DNA from: a virus | Taxonomy: Duplodnaviria > Heunggongvirae > Uroviricota > Caudoviricetes | Direction: 5' to 3' (one strand) | IMG/VR virus record: IMGVR_UViG_2681813269_000007 | Length of the DNA stretch: 22,505 nt | Shown here: positions 2,900 to 21,871 of the stretch, in pieces | Numbering within the stretch: position 1 is the first letter of the stretch | How the letters are laid out: each line of letters begins with the position of its first letter | Position numbers and translations under genes: made by a program | Notes under the pieces: model-generated | What the model saw: only the letters and a program-made list of their open reading frames with translations | The model's database searches: none | What the model was told of the DNA's origin: nothing

Positions 2900-4065
2900 T
2901 ATTCGTTCTCCCAGCGAGGTTTTATTAGATCATCAAAAATTTCTCGGCAAACAGGGTCCCATATAGAAACAGCATTTCTCCATGCATTCAATGTTGAACG
3001 TTGGTTTGCTGCTTGTTCAAATACTGTTCTCATTTTTATCTGGCCTTTACCTACTTCATCGGTAACGCGTACAACCTGACGTAATACCATTGATCCCCAT
3101 GTATTTCTTATTTGTTCTTCCATCCATCGTGATTGATTCCCTGTAGTGAGACTATATTTAGTCAGAAGTAAGCGAACGGTTGGCTCAAATCCACCTAGGT
3201 CAACGCTTTCCAATAGATCGAGAAGCATTGTGAAAAACTGTAGAACAGAAGCGTAATCAAATAATTCTGCAGGTGTAGCAACAACAATAACGTCAGCGGC
3301 ACAAACAACGTTAATGGTTCCTGTACCGAGGTTCGGAGCACTATCTATAACGATAACATCGTAGTTATCCCAAACTGATTCAATAGCTGCGCGCAGCATA
3401 AGGTGTGGAGGATGAGGCAATTTACCCTGAGCATGATATTGCATGAGATCTGTTTCTATACGATGTAAAGCTAGGCAGCTAGGGATAATGTCTAGCCCAG
3501 GCCAACATGTTGGCTTTATAGCATATTCAGCGTTATCGCGTTCTCCTAAGTAAAATGGCAGTAAAGTATCCTCGGCATGGATATGTAAATCAGGAACATA
3601 ACCGTGATACATAGAGGCCGTGCCTTGAGGATCGTTACCTTCAACCAAAAGAACACGATGACCTTGTAATGCTAACCATTGAGCTTGATGTACCGCAGAC
3701 GATGTTTTATAAACGCCGCCTTTGTGTGACATAACGGCAAGCGCAACAGGGTTTTTATCTTGTGGTCGTTGGTTTGGGTTGCCAAAAACTGCTCGCATAC
3801 TGTTGATTTGATCTATGGTATAACCAGCACGACGTTCAATTCTTCCTCTCATTTCAAAGTCAGGTGCAGGTAAACGCCCGCTCTTCTCAGCATCTCTAAT
3901 TGCTTGAGGAGTTACACCAATTAAATCTGCTACTTCAGTTATACCCCATCGGCGGGTGATACGCCGAGCTTCAGGACTATCATCACCGAATTGAGCGATA
4001 GCAATTGCTTTGGTCATTTCTTGACCTCTCGTAACACAATCTTGCAATAACTTTTTCAAAGACAT
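2899..4065 (-). CDS. sopA: Partition ATPase SopA (ParA family, type Ia with N-terminal HTH extension)
   Basis: 388-aa ORF with GGAGATGA RBS. Deviant Walker A KGGVYKTS, a long N-terminal extension, and the same length as F SopA. Transcribed divergently from telN. Confidence 0.9.
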   Translation of the reverse strand: MSLKKLLQDCVTRGQEMTKAIAIAQFGDDSPEARRITRRWGITEVADLIGVTPQAIRDAEKSGRLPAPDFEMRGRIERRAGYTIDQINSMRAVFGNPNQRPQDKNPVALAVMSHKGGVYKTSSAVHQAQWLALQGHRVLLVEGNDPQGTASMYHGYVPDLHIHAEDTLLPFYLGERDNAEYAIKPTCWPGLDIIPSCLALHRIETDLMQYHAQGKLPHPPHLMLRAAIESVWDNYDVIVIDSAPNLGTGTINVVCAADVIVVATPAELFDYASVLQFFTMLLDLLESVDLGGFEPTVRLLLTKYSLTTGNQSRWMEEQIRNTWGSMVLRQVVRVTDEVGKGQIKMRTVFEQAANQRSTLNAWRNAVSIWDPVCREIFDDLIKPRWENE

Positions 4066-4500: not shown

Positions 4501-4542
4501 ACATAATCACCCATTATACGCGCGTATAATGGGGAATTATGT
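4501..4542. other. telRL / telO telomere-resolution site (protelomerase target palindrome)
   Basis: ACATAATCACCCATTATACGCGCGTATAATGGGGAATTATGT has dyad symmetry centred between 4521 and 4522. The central 24 bp (4510-4533) are a perfect palindrome containing TACGCGCGTA; two mismatched pairs separate it from 7-bp matched outer arms. It lies between sopA and telN, as in N15. Confidence 0.85.
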
Positions 4543-4712: not shown

Positions 4713-6626
4713 ATGAGCAAAGTAAAAATCGGTGAATTAATAAACTCACTTGTTAGCGATGTTGAGTCAATAGATAACTCTGACCGTCCTCAAGGGGAGA
4801 AAACAAAAAAAATAAAGGCTGTTGCATTAAAATTTAAAAATGCATTATTTAATGACAAGCGAAAGTTTAGGGGGAAAGGATTAGAAAAAAGAATTACAGC
4901 CAACACATTCAATGCCTATATGAGCAGGGCCAGAAAACGGTTTGATGATAAACTTCATCATAGCTTTGAAAAAAATATACATCGCCTATCTGAAAAGTAT
5001 CCTTTATATAATGAGGAGCTATTGTCATGGCTTTCTCTACCTGCTGCCGATATTCGCCAGAGAATGTCAGCTTTACAGGCAAAATTAAAATTAATTCTCC
5101 CTCTATCAGAAGATTTATCTAATATCAGAATTGGCGATAACAAAAGTCATAATAAGTTATTGAAATTATCAAATAAATATAAAGAGTGGCAATTCGCCAT
5201 TTCTGATTTAACTAGCGATAACTGGAAAGATAAGCGCGATTATTTATATAAATTACTACAGCAAGGATCTGCCTTACTTGAGGAGTTGAATCAGCTAAAA
5301 GTTAACCATGAGATTCTCTATCATCTTCAACTAAGCCCTGCCGAACGTGCATCTATCCAGCAACGATGGGCGGACGTTCTGCACAATAAGAAACGTAACG
5401 TGGTGGTCATTGATTACCCTAAATATATGCAAGCTATTTACGATATTATAAATAGCCCTGCTACATTAAATAATCTAAACACTCGTTCAGGTATGGCTCC
5501 TTTGGCATTTGCACTTGCTGCATTGTCAGGAAGACGAATGATTGAGATTATGTATCAAGGTACATTTACTGTTTCTGGTAAGTATACCGTTGATTTTTTA
5601 GGCCAAGCTAAAAAAAGAACTTCTGATGATATAACCAGAAAAATATATACATTATGCGAAGCAAAAACATTTGTTTATTTAATAAATGTACTTCGCTCAT
5701 GCCCAGCAGCATCTGATTTTGATGATGTCGTTAAAGGTTATGGAGATAACGATACACGCTCTGAAAACGGACGTATTAATGCCATATTAGCAAAGGCTTT
5801 TAACCCGTGGGTTAAATCATTTTTCAAAGATGACCGCCGTGTTTATAAAGATAGTCGTGCTATTTATGCCCGTATTGCGTATGAAATGTTTTTCCGCGTA
5901 GATCCTCGTTGGAAAAACGTAGATGAAGATGTTTTCTTTATGGAAATTTTAGGCCATGACGATGAAAACACTCAATTACACTATAAGCAATTCAAGCTGG
6001 CCAACTTCTCAAAGACATGGAGGCCAAATACTGGAAACGAAAATACCAGGCTGGAAGCATTGCAGCAGCTTGATGACGAAATGCCTGGATTCGCCAGAGG
6101 AGATGCCGGGGTTCGTCTGCATAACACAGTTAAGCAGCTGGTAGAGCAGGACCCCTCTATAAAAATCACGAACAGCACTCTAAGAGCGTTCAAATTTAGC
6201 CCAACAATGATTAGTCGATACCTGGAATTTGCTGCTGATGCTCTGGGGCAATTTGTTGGCGAAAACGGACAATGGCAACTGAAAATAGATACTCCAGAAA
6301 TCGTTATGCCTGACGAAGAAGAACTGGAAGCAATACCTGAACTGGCGGATGAATTATCAGAGGATGACGATCTGGATGACGACGAAATTGAGATAGAGGA
6401 AGAGGAAGAGGAAGAGGAAGAGGAAGAGGAAGAGAGCGTAGAAGAACAGCAACCGCCTGCACCTTCTTCGCCTGTATCTAAGCCGGTATTTAAGCCGGTG
6501 AGAAATATTGGTGATGGCTCATACGTTGTTGAGTTTCATTATAATGGCCAGAATTATGCGTGGTCCGGCAGTGCAAACAGCCCCATGTCAGCAATGCAGT
6601 TAGCATGGCTGACATATTTCGGTTAA
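4713..6626 (+). CDS. telN: Protelomerase TelN (telomere resolvase, tyrosine-recombinase-like)
   Basis: 637-aa ORF with AGGAGAGG RBS. The N-terminus MSKVKIGELIN... and overall colinearity match N15 TelN (about 630 aa) as I recall it. An acidic C-terminal tract precedes the conserved tail. Confidence 0.92.
   Translation: MSKVKIGELINSLVSDVESIDNSDRPQGEKTKKIKAVALKFKNALFNDKRKFRGKGLEKRITANTFNAYMSRARKRFDDKLHHSFEKNIHRLSEKYPLYNEELLSWLSLPAADIRQRMSALQAKLKLILPLSEDLSNIRIGDNKSHNKLLKLSNKYKEWQFAISDLTSDNWKDKRDYLYKLLQQGSALLEELNQLKVNHEILYHLQLSPAERASIQQRWADVLHNKKRNVVVIDYPKYMQAIYDIINSPATLNNLNTRSGMAPLAFALAALSGRRMIEIMYQGTFTVSGKYTVDFLGQAKKRTSDDITRKIYTLCEAKTFVYLINVLRSCPAASDFDDVVKGYGDNDTRSENGRINAILAKAFNPWVKSFFKDDRRVYKDSRAIYARIAYEMFFRVDPRWKNVDEDVFFMEILGHDDENTQLHYKQFKLANFSKTWRPNTGNENTRLEALQQLDDEMPGFARGDAGVRLHNTVKQLVEQDPSIKITNSTLRAFKFSPTMISRYLEFAADALGQFVGENGQWQLKIDTPEIVMPDEEELEAIPELADELSEDDDLDDDEIEIEEEEEEEEEEEEESVEEQQPPAPSSPVSKPVFKPVRNIGDGSYVVEFHYNGQNYAWSGSANSPMSAMQLAWLTYFG
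6396..6431 (+). repeat. Perfect (GAGGAA)x6 in-frame hexanucleotide tandem repeat inside telN
   Basis: Six exact tandem GAGGAA units encode the poly-Glu run in the TelN C-terminal acidic linker. Confidence 0.9.
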
Positions 6627-8351: not shown

Positions 8352-9164
8352 TTATAAGAAAGCCTCACGCGAACGGAACACCCACTCTAGCTGTACTGGA
8401 TAAATTTCTCCCGTTTTAATATTTATTAGGCGCGCGGCTAATAACTCACCCATAAAAACCTGAGTTTTATGGCTCATATCTGACGGGTTAAAAATAGTAG
8501 GTGATGTTATATCAATATGATTACTGCTTAACCCATTTATCTTTGCTAAATATTCAATTCTAAGGTCTTTTACATTAACATCTTTTGGTATTTGTCCTTT
8601 TATATCAATATCTGCCCATATTGTTTCAGGGTTCCCTTCATTTATTTGTGTACTACCAAAGATAATTTCGGCACCTAAAGTATTTAACACTTCTACATCA
8701 GCAGATATTCCAAAAGCATTAGCACCAACATAGCTTCCATGCTTTGTTATTTCAGAGGAATCGACATGAAAACCATACCATCCAGACATATCTCGAGATG
8801 TTATCACGCTATCACTACCGCTATTCTCAACAAAATCACGGTTAAGATATGTTCCTGAGTATGTGATACTTCTAGGGATAGACAAACCTTGAGATGTTAA
8901 AACGTTGTTGTATGGCGCGTATGTTAATGAGTGAACGACATATCCACGCCATAAACCATCATCTATCTTTGATGCAATAATTCTATTAAATTCCTTACCT
9001 GTGAGTATTTTGCTGCTAAAATCACCAACAGAGTTGATAGGTACTCTTTTTTCTTTTTCGAATTTATACTCAACGTCCGTTGATGCCTTATTATCATATT
9101 GATAAGTGCATCCAGATAATAACAAGATAGAGAGTAATAAAGCTGTTGTTTTTTTGTTACGCAT
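8352..9164 (-). CDS. Lipoprotein of unknown function (AT-rich cargo gene)
   Basis: 270-aa ORF with signal peptide and lipobox (MRNKKTTALLLSILLLSGC). The gene is markedly more AT-rich than its neighbours and has its own AT-rich upstream region. Confidence 0.8.
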   Translation of the reverse strand: MRNKKTTALLLSILLLSGCTYQYDNKASTDVEYKFEKEKRVPINSVGDFSSKILTGKEFNRIIASKIDDGLWRGYVVHSLTYAPYNNVLTSQGLSIPRSITYSGTYLNRDFVENSGSDSVITSRDMSGWYGFHVDSSEITKHGSYVGANAFGISADVEVLNTLGAEIIFGSTQINEGNPETIWADIDIKGQIPKDVNVKDLRIEYLAKINGLSSNHIDITSPTIFNPSDMSHKTQVFMGELLAARLINIKTGEIYPVQLEWVFRSREAFL

Positions 9165-9978: not shown

Positions 9979-10166
9979 ATTTTTACTCCCCGTTCACCGA
10001 AAAATCACGATAGAAACGTTTCCACATACGATAAGTCTGCGCGAGTTGTTCACCACGAAACATCGCCTTCCTGGCCTTCATGTTTTCCTTGTGAGACTTT
10101 CGATCTATGAACCAAAACCATTGCTGGAACACACAAAGCAAGAGACACAAAGATAATATCCACTGA

Positions 10167-13100
10167 TTACCCATAGAAAGCGCCCTGCTCTTCGTAGCTG
10201 CATGGGCTATTCCCGGTAATGTATTCACGTAACCGCCGCAGTTCATTGCTGGATAAGTGATCCATGAACTCTGTGAGGTACAGAGATGCAAACGTCATAG
10301 CTATGCTGGCTGATGACCATGATGACATAGTGGCCAGCTCCTCACCGGAAAGCGCACTCATCGCCCAGGACTCAGGTACAACCACTGGCAACACAGCCAA
10401 AGCCTCAGAAATTACTGAATGAGGGGCGTTTTGAACCTGCTCGTTTGTGGATCGCGTTTTATCATCCATATATATATTGAGATCCAAATCGCGATCCATT
10501 TCGATGGCGGTCTTCTCGGCTTTACGCGTTTTCAGGGTTAGGCCATCTTTCTGACGCTGAGCAAGAATATCCAGCATAAATGCCGCTGATTCAGGCTCAA
10601 CAAAACGCAAGGTTGGACGCTTATCGCCGTCTCTGCCGCGACGTTTACCTGTTTTAAGGCCAAGAGAGTCGCAAATGTTTTTAAACAACGCTTCCGGCAC
10701 TTTAGGCTTCCCTTTTGGCGTCATAAAACCACCAATGTGCAGAACGTTATTCAACAGGTCACGGCGTTCGGCTGTCATGAGGTTATCTCGAGCAAATTTG
10801 AGACGCTCCTGAGTCGCCTCGCCGGTCATAGTCTCAGGGTTGATACCGCAGTCGATAAAGTACTGCCGGAGAGTTGCTGATTTAAGCGCATAGAAACCGC
10901 GCGCCCCGACTTCAACAGTAGGAGTAGCTTTTACCTTGTGATCGATTATTCCAGGGAATTTAGTTTTAAAGACATCATCAGCCTGCTCGCGAGTCATCGC
11001 GGTCACTACAAAATATTGCCACTGTCCCGCCTGACGGTATGCGTAGGTAAAATTGATGGCTGCTTCTTCCCGGTCGTAACGACGAGCTGTTACCTCATCT
11101 AAAAGCATTGTTTCATAGCGGCGAACTTTGTCTCGAGCACCATCGAAATAGAATTTCAGCGTGCCTTCTTCAACCGGTAGTTTCAGTTCGTTTTCAATAT
11201 CCCAGCGGACAAGTTTTGCCTGTTCTTCAAGCGTCAGCGCGCGTTTTTTTAGCAGTTCTTCACGCTCTGATTCTTGTGGAGTTTCTGTATTGAGATGCAG
11301 ATCCAGTGTCTGTTCCCACACAATATCCCGCGCTTCTTTACGCAGCTCTTTACCGATATCATTCGCAGCATAATCGGTGGCCAGCGGCGATACCTTATAA
11401 CCGTCGCTGTGCATGATGCAGATCATGTTGCTGGCGTAGTCGTTACGCGCAGTCGCTTCAATAGCGGCTGCTTTAATTTTCATCCTGGTAAAGTCGGTAT
11501 TGGCCACCCCCATTGATATACGGTCGCCATCGAAAACGACATCCGTCAGTTCACCGTTCATACCTGCGGTAGCAAGCAATGCCTGGGCGAATGCTCGTTC
11601 TATTTTTTGCGGGTCAGTTTCACGTTTTGCACGAGCTTTATCAAAGCCGATAATAAATTCTTTTGCTGTACGGTCGCGGCGTAGCATTTGCACTGCGTCG
11701 CTGGGTACAACTTCACCACAGAACATGCCGAAATGACGGTCAAAATGTTTTTGCTCAATCGACACGCCGGATGAAATAGACGGGCTATAAATCAGGCCGT
11801 CGTATTTTTTGACCATCTTTTTCGGTTGATTGGTAAATGCTTCAACTTCTGGCTCTGGTTTGTTTTTCTGGTTTACACACAGAAATTTCTTACCAGGAAA
11901 ATGCATTCTCAGGGTGGCTGTCACATCTTCTGCAAAGGTGGAGCTGTCGGTGGCCAACATGATTTTTTCGCCATCCGATACAGCTTTCACCACCTCGGTC
12001 ATGATGCGATCTTTTTCTGTATAAAAAACCCGGATTGGCTCACCTGTTTCGCGGTTGCGAACATCAACAGGTAATTCAATTACGTGGATCTGCAGCCATG
12101 CCGGTAAACCTAGTTCTTCACGGCGTTTCATAGCCAGTTCAGCCAGGTCAACCAGCAGATCGTTCGCATCAGCATCCACCATGATTGGGTGTTGTTCCGT
12201 TCTGGCCAGCGCGTCAATTAGCGTATTGAATACAGCCACCGGGTTTTCCATAGCCCGACCGGAAAGAACGGCACGTAGCCCTTGTGTGGCCTCGTCAAAG
12301 CCAAAATAGTCGTGCTGGCGCATCAACGGTTGCCAGCAGTTTTTAACAATCGAGTTTATGCAGATGGTCAGTTTACTGGCGTATGGAGCCATTTCCTGAT
12401 AGCCAGGGTCCTGATAGTGCAGGATATCGGCTTTTACACCTTTTCCTTCTGTCATCATTTCCCACAGGCCACCAATAAGGGAGACACGGTGAGCAACAGA
12501 GATACCACGTTCTGAGCTATGCATTAATGGTCGTAACAATCCTGTAGATTTGCCGGAACCCATACCAGCACGGACGATGACTATCCCTTGTAGTGATTGC
12601 ACGTACTTCAGGACATCATCGGTCATTACCGAAGTTTCAAAACGCTTATAGGTGATATGTTGAGGGCGTTTATTGGGATCAGTTATGCGTTCGCTGAAAG
12701 AGCGCGGAGCCTGGGCAATACGGCACTTTTTATTCAGGCGACGGGCAATGTGGTCTTTTACCGTAGCGCGATAGATATTTTCCAGTCCCATTTCACGCAG
12801 AACGATGCAGAACATGTTAAATAAATCTGACGGACTGTTAGGAACCGGACAGGTTAGCATGCCTATATCCACCGCTCTCAGCAGCTCTTTGGCAAAAGTA
12901 CGACGGTTATCCCGCTTAATTGTCTTCAGGCGGTTGAGCGTCAGAGATAGCAAATCAGTACCGGTTTTCAGGCGGTTTGCTGTTGTAAATAGTTGACGTG
13001 CGGTTTCACGAAGTCCACGTAGTTTGTGCAGGTCGTTGAAGTCACTGCACTCCATTTGCGGATCGTCTTCAAAAGTTGGATAGACGCAGCGGACATCGTT

Positions 13101-14162
13101 GAATTTCGATAAGATTTCATAGCCAGTCCGCAGGCCGGTATTCCCTTTTCCTTCTGTGGCAGATTTCCGGTCATTATCCAGTGCGCAGGTGATTTTTGCC
13201 GCCGGGTACATGTTTACCAGTTGTTCCACAACATGAACCATGTTGTTAGCGGATACAGCGACAACCACAGCGTCAAAGCGTTTATATTTTTTCGTGGCAA
13301 GCCAGATGGATGCACCAGTAGCAAAACCTTCTGTAACAGCGATGTTTTGCGCCCCTTTCAGCTCACCGATAACAAAGCAGGCACCGACGAAATCGCCGCT
13401 GGTTACTGCGCTGGTCTGGTATTTCCCACCTTGTTTGTCGATTCGCTGCCAACCCACAATACGACCATCGTAACGACCGTCCAGGTGAGCCAGAGGGATA
13501 GCCATATATGTGGTTGGCCCCCGGCTCCATTTCGCACTGTCGTGACTGGTCACGCGACGCACATCACATGAACTAAAAACGTCACGAATACCTTTTTTAA
13601 TCGCATATGGCCATGAGCCGTCTTCAGCCGGAGCATGTTCCCACGCGCTGTGGAATGCCAGCCATCCCAGCAAACGTTCATGGTCCATTTGGTTGTTTTT
13701 CAGGTCATTAATTCGTTTTTGTTCTTCACGGCGACGACGTGCTTCGGCCTGACGTTCTATTCTTTCCCGTTCTTCTTCCGGTTGTGCGACCACGGTCGCA
13801 TTATTCCGTTGTTGCTCACGGCGATATTCAGAAAACAGGAAGGAGAAACCGCTCCATGAGCCAGCATCGCTGCCTTTATGGACGAAGTTAATGAACGGGT
13901 AATCAATCCCTTTGCTGTGTTCCAGCCGGGAGTAAATTTCTACGCGTCCTTTCAGGCTCTTTTCGAGAGCTTCTGGAGATGTTTTATTGTATGAAGAGTA
14001 ACGCTCAACTCCCCCGCGAGGGTTGAGTTGGATGTTGTCGGAACAGGCAGGCCAGTTGATACCAGCCATCTGTGCCAGCTCGGTTAGTTCATCCCGTGCT
14101 GCTTCAATTAGCGAGAACGGATCGCTGCCAAAGCGATCCGCATAGAAATCGTTTAATGTCAT
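10167..14162 (-). CDS. repA: Replication protein RepA (multidomain primase-helicase)
   Basis: 1331-aa ORF, close to the roughly 1324 aa I recall for N15 RepA. Walker A GMGSGKST in the central helicase region. Same orientation and position relative to cB as in N15. Confidence 0.92.
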   Translation of the reverse strand: MTLNDFYADRFGSDPFSLIEAARDELTELAQMAGINWPACSDNIQLNPRGGVERYSSYNKTSPEALEKSLKGRVEIYSRLEHSKGIDYPFINFVHKGSDAGSWSGFSFLFSEYRREQQRNNATVVAQPEEERERIERQAEARRRREEQKRINDLKNNQMDHERLLGWLAFHSAWEHAPAEDGSWPYAIKKGIRDVFSSCDVRRVTSHDSAKWSRGPTTYMAIPLAHLDGRYDGRIVGWQRIDKQGGKYQTSAVTSGDFVGACFVIGELKGAQNIAVTEGFATGASIWLATKKYKRFDAVVVAVSANNMVHVVEQLVNMYPAAKITCALDNDRKSATEGKGNTGLRTGYEILSKFNDVRCVYPTFEDDPQMECSDFNDLHKLRGLRETARQLFTTANRLKTGTDLLSLTLNRLKTIKRDNRRTFAKELLRAVDIGMLTCPVPNSPSDLFNMFCIVLREMGLENIYRATVKDHIARRLNKKCRIAQAPRSFSERITDPNKRPQHITYKRFETSVMTDDVLKYVQSLQGIVIVRAGMGSGKSTGLLRPLMHSSERGISVAHRVSLIGGLWEMMTEGKGVKADILHYQDPGYQEMAPYASKLTICINSIVKNCWQPLMRQHDYFGFDEATQGLRAVLSGRAMENPVAVFNTLIDALARTEQHPIMVDADANDLLVDLAELAMKRREELGLPAWLQIHVIELPVDVRNRETGEPIRVFYTEKDRIMTEVVKAVSDGEKIMLATDSSTFAEDVTATLRMHFPGKKFLCVNQKNKPEPEVEAFTNQPKKMVKKYDGLIYSPSISSGVSIEQKHFDRHFGMFCGEVVPSDAVQMLRRDRTAKEFIIGFDKARAKRETDPQKIERAFAQALLATAGMNGELTDVVFDGDRISMGVANTDFTRMKIKAAAIEATARNDYASNMICIMHSDGYKVSPLATDYAANDIGKELRKEARDIVWEQTLDLHLNTETPQESEREELLKKRALTLEEQAKLVRWDIENELKLPVEEGTLKFYFDGARDKVRRYETMLLDEVTARRYDREEAAINFTYAYRQAGQWQYFVVTAMTREQADDVFKTKFPGIIDHKVKATPTVEVGARGFYALKSATLRQYFIDCGINPETMTGEATQERLKFARDNLMTAERRDLLNNVLHIGGFMTPKGKPKVPEALFKNICDSLGLKTGKRRGRDGDKRPTLRFVEPESAAFMLDILAQRQKDGLTLKTRKAEKTAIEMDRDLDLNIYMDDKTRSTNEQVQNAPHSVISEALAVLPVVVPESWAMSALSGEELATMSSWSSASIAMTFASLYLTEFMDHLSSNELRRLREYITGNSPCSYEEQGAFYG
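13783..13802. other. sopC-like centromere palindrome, copy 1 (inside repA coding sequence)
   Basis: TGTGCGACC-AC-GGTCGCATT. Positions 13785-13800 (TGCGACC-AC-GGTCGCA) are a perfect 7+2+7 inverted repeat with the same GACC-AC-GGTC core as the F sopC SopB-binding site. Confidence 0.6.
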
Positions 14163-14284
14163 TTTTTAGCCATTCCATGCGAATTATGTTTTTTCGGGTT
14201 GAAAAAATCCGCAGGAGCAGCCACAATAAACGCATCTTGAATTGACGGAATCCGTCGCGTTACTGTGGCTGCTTCCTGAAAAGG

Positions 14285-14313
14285 ACCCGAGTTTGCCGAC
14301 TCGGGTTTTTTTT
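14285..14313 (+). terminator. Intrinsic terminator on the strand antisense to the repA leader
   Basis: ACCCGAGT-ttgccg-ACTCGGGT followed by T8, on the plus strand 123-151 bp upstream of the repA start codon. A possible -35 TTGAAA lies at about 14200 on the plus strand. Confidence 0.5.
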
Positions 14314-20527: not shown

Positions 20528-20530
20528 AAG

Positions 20531-20552
20531 CTGTGCGACCACGGTCGCACAG
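20531..20552. other. sopC-like centromere palindrome, copy 3 (longest perfect copy)
   Basis: CTGTGCGACC-AC-GGTCGCACAG, a perfect 10+2+10 inverted repeat starting 4 nt after the stop of the preceding gene. Confidence 0.65.
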
Positions 20553-20635
20553 CACAAAAACGAAAAAGCTTGGCAAAATGACGGTTTTTAGTTATTGTTT
20601 TGTTAAGTTGGGTTTTTTGTACCCAACAGCCAACA

Positions 20636-20659: not shown

Positions 20660-20794
20660 GTGCCTGAAAAGTGGGCGCAGGACAAGTTGCAGCTTGTCCT
20701 GCGGTCAACCCATGCCAGAGCTATAGGCTGAACCTAAAGCCCACCCGCGATGCGCATCGCCGGGTTAGCTTACCCAGGCAAAAAAATAATAGCT

Positions 20795-21871
20795 ATGTTC
20801 AAAACCACTAATATTCATGGCGCACAACTCGTTTGCGCAGATTCTCTGCAATTTATCAAAACCATCCCTGATAACTCGGTCAATTTGATTGCAACAGACC
20901 CACCATACTTCGGCGTAAAGGCTAACGCATGGGATAACCAGTGGGATAGCGATGCTGACTTTTTGGGGTGGATTGACGAATTTTTGGCAGAATTTTGGCG
21001 GATATTGGCCCCTAATGGCAGCCTGTATATGTTTACCGGCTCTCGCCTTGCGTCAAAAATTGAATTATTAACTCGCGACCGTTTCAATGTTCTGAACCAT
21101 ATCATTTGGGCTAAACCCAGTGGTATGTGGCGCGGTTGTCATAAAGAAAGTTTAAGGGCTTATTTTCCTGCTACTGAAAGAATATTATTTGCAGAGCATT
21201 ACGGCGCGTCAGGTTATGCTAAAGGTCAGTCAGGTTATGCTTCAAAATGTGCAGATTTAAGAAAAAATATTTTTTCTCCACTAATTGATGCTTTTTCGCT
21301 GGCTCGCCGTCAGTTAGATATATCAGCCGCAGACATTAATTCAGCGACAGGAAAGCAGATGTGTTCACACTGGTTTTCTTATTCGCAGTGGCGGCTTCCA
21401 TCATTAATTGATTTTAATAAACTATGCGAATTATTTCGCAGGAAGGCAGATTCACTCGGTGTCCCGTGTCCATATCCTTTTAATGTTGATTATTCAGAAC
21501 ATGAAAAGCGTTATAGCGATCTGAAATTGCATTATGAGGAAGTAAAGAAGCAGTATGATGATTTGAAGGCTCAGTATGAAAATTTACGCCGTCCATTTCA
21601 TGTTACTGCTGATGTACCTTATACCGATGTATGGGAGTTTCCTCCTGTGCAATATTATCCTGGCAAGCACCCATGTGAAAAACCTGCAGCGATGATGGAA
21701 CATATTATAAAGAGTAGTTCACGCCCCGGAGATATCGTTGCCGATTTCTTTATGGGATCAGGCTCAACTATTAAAGCTGCGCTGAAGTTAGGACGTCAGG
21801 CAATAGGTATTGAGATTGAGGGCGAACGTTATCTTCAGACAGTTGATGAAGTGAAAAAGTTATTTGAGTAA
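20795..21871 (+). CDS. DNA methyltransferase (amino-MTase, DPPY motif before FxGxG motif)
   Basis: ORF open from 20750; ATG 20795 is preferred because the 20750 ATG sits inside a palindrome. IATDPPY near the N-terminus and FFMGSGST near the C-terminus. No adjacent endonuclease is visible. Confidence 0.8.
   Translation: MFKTTNIHGAQLVCADSLQFIKTIPDNSVNLIATDPPYFGVKANAWDNQWDSDADFLGWIDEFLAEFWRILAPNGSLYMFTGSRLASKIELLTRDRFNVLNHIIWAKPSGMWRGCHKESLRAYFPATERILFAEHYGASGYAKGQSGYASKCADLRKNIFSPLIDAFSLARRQLDISAADINSATGKQMCSHWFSYSQWRLPSLIDFNKLCELFRRKADSLGVPCPYPFNVDYSEHEKRYSDLKLHYEEVKKQYDDLKAQYENLRRPFHVTADVPYTDVWEFPPVQYYPGKHPCEKPAAMMEHIIKSSSRPGDIVADFFMGSGSTIKAALKLGRQAIGIEIEGERYLQTVDEVKKLFE

Follow-up and report, generated by a model that had tools for sequence, protein, structure and literature searches.

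The question raised by the 3' part of repA in IMGVR_UViG_2681813269_000007, a 22,505-nucleotide (nt) stretch of tailed-phage DNA that was analyzed as a whole and is referred to here as the window, is whether replication of this replicon starts within the very gene that encodes its initiator. The initial annotation of the window pointed to an AT tract between GATC-containing inverted repeats as a candidate internal origin, by analogy with phage N15, and the analogy is a sound one: the N15 origin of replication (ori) is stated to lie within repA, and bidirectional replication starts there through the action of RepA (PMC4165912, PMC2847241). The window represents an N15-like telomere phage-plasmid, to which Escherichia phage PhiR46_1 is 98% identical, and the comparisons described below indicate that the element at about 10443–10503 is probably the core of a RepA-dependent plasmid-prophage origin within the 3' part of repA, possibly gated by Dam and SeqA. 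The candidate is supported by its N15-type context, by a signature of selection at the DNA level that is the highest in repA, and by repeats annotated in the N15 repA record U63085. It is what would be expected of an N15-type replicon, in a lineage where the origin was unmapped, and it leaves the known picture of replication unchanged.

The location of the element in the 3' part of repA is as initially reported, and the distance to the repA stop codon is 283–329 nt. The inverted repeats GGATCGCG (10449–10456) and CGCGATCC (10490–10497), the 33-base pair (bp) spacer between them, the AT tract CATATATATATTG (10467–10479), and three GATC sites within about 50 bp (at 10450, 10481, and 10493, spanning 47 bp) are base-exact as first described. 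The inverted repeat is longer than was noted, being perfect over 9 bp (TGGATCGCG / CGCGATCCA), and extends to 13-nt arms that are complementary at 12 of 13 positions. The gene and the parts of the element are as follows.

10167–14162, minus strand: repA, a 1331-codon open reading frame (ORF) from the ORF list, encoding a multifunctional initiator of 1331 amino acids (aa).
10443–10453, minus strand: 11-mer repeat A, GATCCACAAAC, in the opposite orientation to repeats B and C and homologous to U63085 1421–1431.
10448–10460, no strand: left dyad arm, TGGATCGCGTTTT, from the inverted repeat search, holding GATC-1 (10450–10453).
10452–10511, minus strand: island of synonymous-site conservation over a variable, indel-prone peptide, from the third-position profile.
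10457–10489: AT-rich spacer or core, a candidate unwinding element, with an (AT)5 run at 10468–10477 and the inner GATC-2 at 10481–10484.
10481–10491, plus strand: 11-mer repeat B, GATCCAAATCG, identical to U63085 1460–1470.
10486–10498, no strand: right dyad arm, AAATCGCGATCCA, from the inverted repeat search, holding GATC-3 (10493–10496).
10493–10503, plus strand: 11-mer repeat C, GATCCATTTCG, starting 12 bp after the start of repeat B and homologous to U63085 1472–1482.

Each of the three 11-mers is headed by a GATC, and the start-to-start spacings of the GATCs (12, 31, and 43 bp) correspond to 1.1, 3.0, and 4.1 helical turns. The sites are thus clustered at an AT-rich region on one helical face, as in origins of the Dam/SeqA type, and the combination of a palindrome, a central A+T core, and inverted arms with an initiator of the UL9 family of SF2 helicases corresponds to a UL9/oriS-type layout. 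The coding strand of the element reads ATC GAA ATG GAT CGC GAT TTG GAT CTC AAT ATA TAT ATG GAT GAT AAA ACG CGA TCC, encoding the peptide IEMDRDLDLNIYMDDKTRS (aa 1220–1238). The element occurs only once in the 22.5-kb window.

Taken singly, these features are near chance level, and only partly or weakly beyond it. Perfect 8-bp inverted repeats with spacers of 3–60 bp number 57 in the window, compared with 25 ± 7 in dinucleotide shuffles; they are common in this DNA, and a repeat of that size is therefore not special. Three GATCs in 50 bp are found at only one place in the 22.5 kb, and at least one such cluster appears in 55% of the shuffles, which carry more GATCs, the site being under-represented window-wide (51 sites, whereas dinucleotide-preserving shuffles predict about 81). 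At 79%, the A+T content of the spacer is the highest of any 33-mer in repA, and the spacer is also the least stable 20–30-bp duplex of that gene (z = 3.7), but not the least stable of the whole window. As a single strand, the element folds better than shuffled sequences (z = −3.1 and −3.6). Since the individual features are this close to chance, the case rests on comparison with relatives.

For this comparison, a set of repA genes from nine phage records, three genomes, and 68 IMG/VR contigs was reduced to 46 non-redundant genes, and third-position conservation was scored in 15-codon windows of a sequence-weighted codon alignment. The peak of the whole gene is at 10452–10496, which ranks first among about 1317 windows, with a score of 0.714 versus a gene mean of 0.525 (residual z = 4.8), whereas amino acid conservation over the same interval is below average (0.51 versus 0.68). 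In a finer profile, third-position conservation climbs from about 10511 down to about 10457. The second-ranked window, 13761–13805 (z = 3.5), holds the palindrome TGTGCGACCACGGTCGCA, which is labeled “putative plasmid partitioning site” in the phiKO2 record; the method therefore recovers a known cis-acting centromere site, which serves as a positive control and is outscored in synonymous conservation by the candidate origin (z of 4.8 versus 3.5). In the window the palindrome, in the form TGTGCGACCACGGTCGCA(CA), is present in two copies, one within repA at 13784–13801 (codons ~121–127) and the other intergenic at 20530–20553. When the window is compared with N15, codons are identical at 11 of the 12 conserved residues of the candidate origin, as opposed to 45% gene-wide (P = 0.001).

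The family alignment of the element, consisting of 32 distinct 63-nt versions in 63 columns, is free of gaps. The outer GATCs are invariant in all 32 versions and exactly 43 nt apart (coding-strand columns 9–12 for GATC-3 and 52–55 for GATC-1), and the layout throughout the family is of two outer and usually two inner GATCs on one helical face around a TATA(T/G)AT core, which is present in all lineages, PY54 included. This layout persists in lineages with 35–40% identity in the C-terminal part of the protein, down to 35%, while the encoded peptide shifts from EMDRDLDLNIYMDDKTRS to EPDLTCGSDIDIRSQVGS to DDPDLFLGLIDNERSGS, with a few conserved residues (D, I, S); between distant lineages, it is the layout rather than the sequence that is conserved. 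Codon usage follows the same pattern. The Asp codon at GATC-3 is GAT in 46 of 46 genes, although GAT accounts for only 52% of Asp codons gene-wide, and the next codon always starts with C, whether it encodes H, R, L, or P. The codon that precedes the last Ser, for Arg or Gly, is always NGA (CGA in 28 genes, GGA in 13, and AGA in 5), although CGA, GGA, and AGA are minor codons that make up 9, 13, and 6% of their codon families in the gene as a whole; the Ser codon itself is always TCN. Rare codons are thus used systematically, preserving the GATCs, and over the 46 genes GATC occurs at 79 per kb in the element but at 3.6 per kb elsewhere in repA (22-fold).

The dyad symmetry of the element was examined by pairing each alignment column i with column 64−i. 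Standard base pairs occupy 69.5% of the cells, compared with 59.5 ± 1.2% in column shuffles (none of 500 being as high), and sliding the partner column drops pairing to 30–46%. The covariation score is 0.316 versus 0.171, and changes on both sides are found in 13 of 22 column pairs. There are at least six different arm sequences, each self-complementary in its own lineage, such as CGCG, TAACTTG, CAGCTTTT, and CAGATCTTT; the paired arms are GATCTAACTTG / CAAGTTGGATC in PY54, CTGATCCAGCTTTT / AAAAGCTGGATCAG in family member L072, and TGATCCAGATCTTT / AAAGATCTGGATCA in family members L075–L080. Mismatches on the coding strand comprise 68 G.T and 64 A.C pairs, and, without a strand bias, the symmetry is one of the duplex and not of an mRNA hairpin. 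From these comparisons of relatives, it is concluded that the element is under selection as DNA, in the form of a duplex with dyad symmetry.

Codon alignments establish that the element is homologous in position and in sequence to a region of repA in N15 and PY54, in which the outer GATCs span 30145–30191 (NC_001901) and 27863–27909 (AJ564013), respectively, and, as in those phages, it lies in the 3' part of a CyRepA1 primase-helicase gene in a genome that also encodes a protelomerase and carries a tel site. No rep_origin feature is annotated in GenBank for N15, phiKO2, or PY54. The original N15 repA entry, GenBank U63085, annotates three 11-nt repeat_regions at the homologous position, which are as follows.

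U63085 1421–1431, minus strand: ATCCAAAACAG.
U63085 1460–1470: GATCCAAATCG.
U63085 1472–1482: GATCCACTTCG.

Ziegelin et al. in 2005 reportedly described a PY54 origin of 212 bp, RepA being able to act in trans even if the 3' end of its gene is missing, and Mardanov and Ravin in 2006 reportedly obtained a similar result for N15, placing its origin in the 3' part of repA.

Independent information on the extent of the element comes from plasmid pSP2 of Rouxiella badensis (CP114059, L082), where it is present twice, at ~2366–2419 and ~2687–2740. The first copy is inside a 380-aa ORF that resembles the RepA C terminus; the second is 321 bp downstream, past the stop codon, where the plus strand has no ORF of 50 aa or more. 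They match each other at 53 of 54 nt and have unrelated flanks and sharp borders. The existence of a near-identical noncoding copy shows that the element is a discrete module of about 54 bp for which coding is not required. The 380-aa ORF is the only RepA-like gene in the 4.2-kb stretch of pSP2 that was examined, and pSP2 itself, which is circular and 116 kb in size, also encodes a member of the protelomerase family. In Aeromonas veronii pHm21 (NZ_CP059397, L083), whose CyRepA1 gene has 26% identity, seven GATCs are found within 117 bp at 2906–3019, in the same relative position 200–310 nt before the stop codon; this stretch is GC-rich and lacks an AT core, and could represent an origin of another design at the equivalent position. 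A scan of IMG/VR with the pattern GGATCGCG-N25-40-CGCGATCC gave mostly chance matches in GC-rich contigs (median GC 64%, with a flat distribution of spacer lengths). The matches with AT-rich spacers were relatives from the repA set, together with L124, with a spacer of 31 nt, and L084 (IMGVR_UViG_3300036791_000702), which at 8804–8852 has GGATCGCG-N33-CGCGATCC with a related spacer (GTTTGGATCTTAATATAGAG...). L084, which the protein-based search had missed, is probably a further repA lineage.

The properties of RepA suggest how such an element might work. The protein has the following domains.

Approximately aa 274–383 of RepA: Toprim primase region (Pfam Toprim_3).
aa 522–1034 of RepA: UL9-like SF2 helicase / CyRepA1 domain (Pfam and NCBIfam).

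The match to Pfam Herpes_ori_bp (PF02399) has E = 5.4e-6 and 25.2 bits (gathering cutoff 20), and that to NCBIfam CyRepA1 (NF042913) has 260.8 bits. In the proposed mechanism, RepA, as a Toprim primase joined to a UL9-like SF2 helicase, would recognize the two inverted GATC-headed arms, with lineage-specific bases beside GATC, and would probably bind one helical face as a dimer or double oligomer. The central (AT)5 / TATA(T/G)AT core between the arms would then melt, helicase would be loaded both ways, and the primase domain would prime both strands, giving bidirectional replication as reported for N15. The three or four GATCs would be methylated by host Dam and become hemimethylated after initiation, when SeqA may bind and delay re-initiation; this is the most speculative step of the scheme.

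SeqA binds pairs of hemimethylated GATCs on the same helical face (PMC2691817). The spacings of about 1, 3, and 4 turns between the GATCs of the element fit both a protein array on a single face of the helix and this rule for SeqA pairs, and gating of re-initiation by Dam and SeqA may be a reasonable addition to the origin hypothesis. The literature searched contains no link of N15 to SeqA or Dam; the original papers on the N15 and PY54 origins were beyond its reach. The covarying arms, differing between lineages, would account for replicon-specific recognition, which is said to have been reported for PY54. A broader proposal, that initiation by all telomere-phage RepA proteins (CyRepA1) is gated by Dam and SeqA and that the covarying bases constitute an origin-RepA specificity code that sets incompatibility groups, is conjectural and on balance rather unlikely. 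Neither the methylation-gating nor the specificity-code idea is stated for CyRepA1 in the accessible literature, from which the key N15 and PY54 papers are excepted.

Several observations weigh against the identification of the element as the origin core. The cumulative GC-skew minimum is at about 14.7 kb, away from the element; it should be noted that this minimum follows the switch in gene orientation and is therefore uninformative about the origin at this scale. The N15 group, the source of the experimentally studied ori, has the weakest dyad, with arms of just GGATCG / CGATCC or TTTGGATC / GATCCAAA and a fold z of about −1. Site identity between the window and PY54 is 0.47, below the gene-wide value of 0.53. 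The covariation sample represents perhaps six to eight independent lineages, and relatedness inflates the shuffle statistics, but neither the slid controls nor the count of distinct arm types relies on the lineages being independent. Finally, the conserved island is merely some 55–60 bp long and its flanks carry no further conserved DNA features; if a minimal ori needs about 200 bp, the element may be necessary but not sufficient.

The leading alternative is that the element is a cis-acting control site, either for autoregulation or “handcuffing” copy control by RepA or for a Dam/SeqA switch, with the true start of replication elsewhere in or near repA. The binding site of a symmetric regulator would also be conserved as DNA, have dyad symmetry, and contain invariant, phased GATCs; SeqA is known to bind such hemimethylated pairs on one helical face (PMC2691817), and a typical minimal origin would be longer than the conserved island. 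However, the location of the least stable short duplex of repA exactly between the arms is the layout of an unwinding element, the depositors of the N15 repA record U63085 marked these repeats, and no other origin-like feature or conserved island was found in the 3' 730 bp of repA. Specifically, 10167–10900 contains no family of at least three direct repeats of 17–22 bp that could be iterons, just chance two-copy repeats and the three 11-mers, and its two matches to the DnaA box TTWTNCACA with at most one mismatch correspond to the chance rate (57 window-wide); none is within 10400–10550, adjacent to the element. A control site is considered an unlikely explanation, although more probable than the other alternatives.

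A second alternative is that the element binds a protein with no role in replication initiation, for example one for partition, the repressor, TelN, or a host nucleoid protein. A conserved palindrome is the usual form of a site for a dimer, and N15-type phages place centromeres inside repA as well. Each of the specific candidates meets with an objection: the centromere palindrome TGTGCGACCACGGTCGCA has a different sequence and sits at 13784–13801 and 20530–20553; the TelN target, telRL, is at 4510–4535 and is unrelated in sequence; the operators of the N15 repressor are annotated upstream of repA and not at the element; and the integration host factor (IHF) consensus is not present in the element. 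This alternative is judged improbable.

The good folding of the coding strand in most lineages, together with the covariation of the arms, would also be expected of an RNA hairpin in repA mRNA that might be cleaved by RNase III, pause translation, or attenuate the expression of downstream genes. G.U pairs, but not A.C pairs, would be acceptable in an RNA stem, contrary to the near equality of G.T and A.C mismatches noted above, and such a stem would leave the invariant palindromic GATCs at fixed positions unexplained. Moreover, no Rfam family matches the element (the sole match is a chance one to a miRNA hairpin, E = 0.53), no terminator-like T-run follows the stem, and pSP2 carries a near-identical copy outside an ORF, all of which make a functional RNA hairpin highly improbable. 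A by-product of protein-coding constraint or chance, to which the near-chance level of each feature singly in the window and the few conserved residues (D, I, S) might be ascribed, is excluded for practical purposes as a vanishingly small likelihood, since the top third-position conservation of the gene coincides with below-average amino acid conservation, the GATCs are invariant and kept by rare codons, their 43-nt spacing is fixed while the peptide varies, and a noncoding copy exists.

With the element regarded as the probable origin core, it can be compared with those of known systems. The origins of N15 and PY54 share with it the genome type, an orthologous initiator gene, and a position 230–330 nt before the repA stop codon. 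They differ in detail: the arms of N15 are only 6–8 bp, whereas in the window CGCG beside GATC gives the perfect 9-bp repeat, and in PY54 four GATCs lie in a 47-bp palindrome that is nearly perfect. The 3' third of the window repA is also too diverged from that of N15 for megablast detection, and megablast against phiKO2 and N15 matched repA over its 5' two-thirds only. The comment in the initial annotation that a coding region would not usually contain such a sequence was a fair one, but the arrangement was already known, from N15 and from phage lambda, where ori similarly lies within the coding sequence of the initiator's own gene, O (PMC7157519). Unlike lambda, the element contains three or four 11-mers and no long iterons, and RepA carries its own primase and helicase. 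At the lambda origin, initiator sites with dyad symmetry lie next to an AT-rich region, and the protein segment encoded there is linker-like; its four 19-bp iterons are bound by O, and host DnaB and DnaG are engaged via the P protein.

The oriS/UL9 system of herpes simplex virus (HSV) may be the best analogy and is the closest working one, as judged from architecture and a distant helicase-domain match. HSV oriS is a palindrome of about 45 bp with a central A+T stretch and inverted initiator boxes on either side, and this palindrome-plus-AT-core layout is shared by the element, just as the helicase region of RepA matches Herpes_ori_bp. The origin sequences, in contrast, are unrelated, and the HSV system is not known to have a GATC or Dam component. 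In oriC and P1 oriR, as in the element, GATCs are clustered in or next to an AT-rich unwinding region on one helical face, and all of the hosts here are γ-proteobacteria that have Dam; the differences are that the element has no DnaA box (with at most one mismatch) and that a primase-helicase takes the place of DnaA or an iteron-binding Rep as initiator. The α protein of P4 combines primase, helicase, and origin recognition in a single protein, and RepA is likewise multifunctional, with primase and helicase domains found and origin recognition predicted. In P4, octamers are repeated at ori and at crr, which are separate from each other and both lie outside the α gene, whereas the element is single-copy in the 22.5-kb window, and the helicases are not of the same class.

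That the origin is in repA was already known; what is added here is a precise candidate core, a definition of which of its positions are invariant and which vary, and the hypothesis of Dam/SeqA gating. N15-type phage-plasmids are widespread in Klebsiella and Escherichia coli, and N15-type replicons underlie linear cloning vectors such as the pJAZZ series (PMC2847241). A core of about 55 bp with invariant positions (the GATCs, their spacing, and the AT core) and variable ones (the arms) could be used in the design of minimal origins, and suggests a route to compatible replicon pairs and to a possible link between copy number and host Dam/SeqA. It also offers an annotation signature for the ori of any CyRepA1 replicon, GATC-N39-GATC with an AT core, 230–330 nt before the repA stop codon.

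The remainder of the gene and window is consistent with an N15-type phage-plasmid. Homologues of repA include the “primase” gene of PhiR46_1, N15 gp37, and phiKO2 gp35; repA of the window is 98.4% identical to that of PhiR46_1 and 95% identical to that of YDC107_1, and over the whole protein RepA has 75% identity with N15 and 49% with PY54. The C-terminal part of RepA is matched in 223 plasmid records. This region, which holds the element at aa 1221–1238, is poorly conserved, the last 300 residues have no characterized domain, and a PDB sequence profile search with the C terminus found nothing (best match E = 0.27). The single-sequence AlphaFold model of the RepA C terminus is too poor to use (mean predicted local distance difference test score, pLDDT, of 39), and the residues encoded by the element are in its lowest-confidence stretch, predicted to be coil. 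The N15-type gene set in the window comprises telRL, telN, repA, and a repressor gene, of which the telomere features are as follows.

4510–4535: telRL-type palindrome, CCCATTATACGCGCGTATAATGGG, intact, upstream of the protelomerase gene.
4713–6626: telN protelomerase gene, with four TelK/ResT domains.

Since the telRL palindrome is intact, the window derives either from the phage or circular genome, in which this site is uncut, or from an assembly across the telomere site. The possibility that the element is a pseudo-tel site for TelN was ruled out, as it has no sequence similarity to telRL, and a search for a σ70-like promoter site in 10100–10900 found none. In the 5' part of repA, a perfect 9-bp inverted repeat, CGGATCGCT-N5-AGCGATCCG (14118–14141, codons 8–15), shares the heptamer GGATCGC with the ori arms, and the four copies of this heptamer in the window are all within the ori-arm pair and the 14118–14141 pair. 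The 5' repeat was considered as a part of the system and rejected, being not conserved beyond a few lineages; it is probably incidental, N15 having GGAGCGC. A DNA methylase of 373 aa is encoded at 20750–21871 and belongs to the N6_N4_Mtase family (PF01555), not to the Dam family. The repressor region of the window resembles that of N15. Between repA and the repressor gene (14214–14312) there is a 10–11-bp inverted repeat, GAGCAGCCACA ... TGTGGCTGCTTC, with a spacer of about 40 bp, followed by a strong terminator-like hairpin, GACCCGAGT...ACTCGGGTTTTTTTT, with a T-run; these features resemble the terminator and operator region annotated at the equivalent place in N15.

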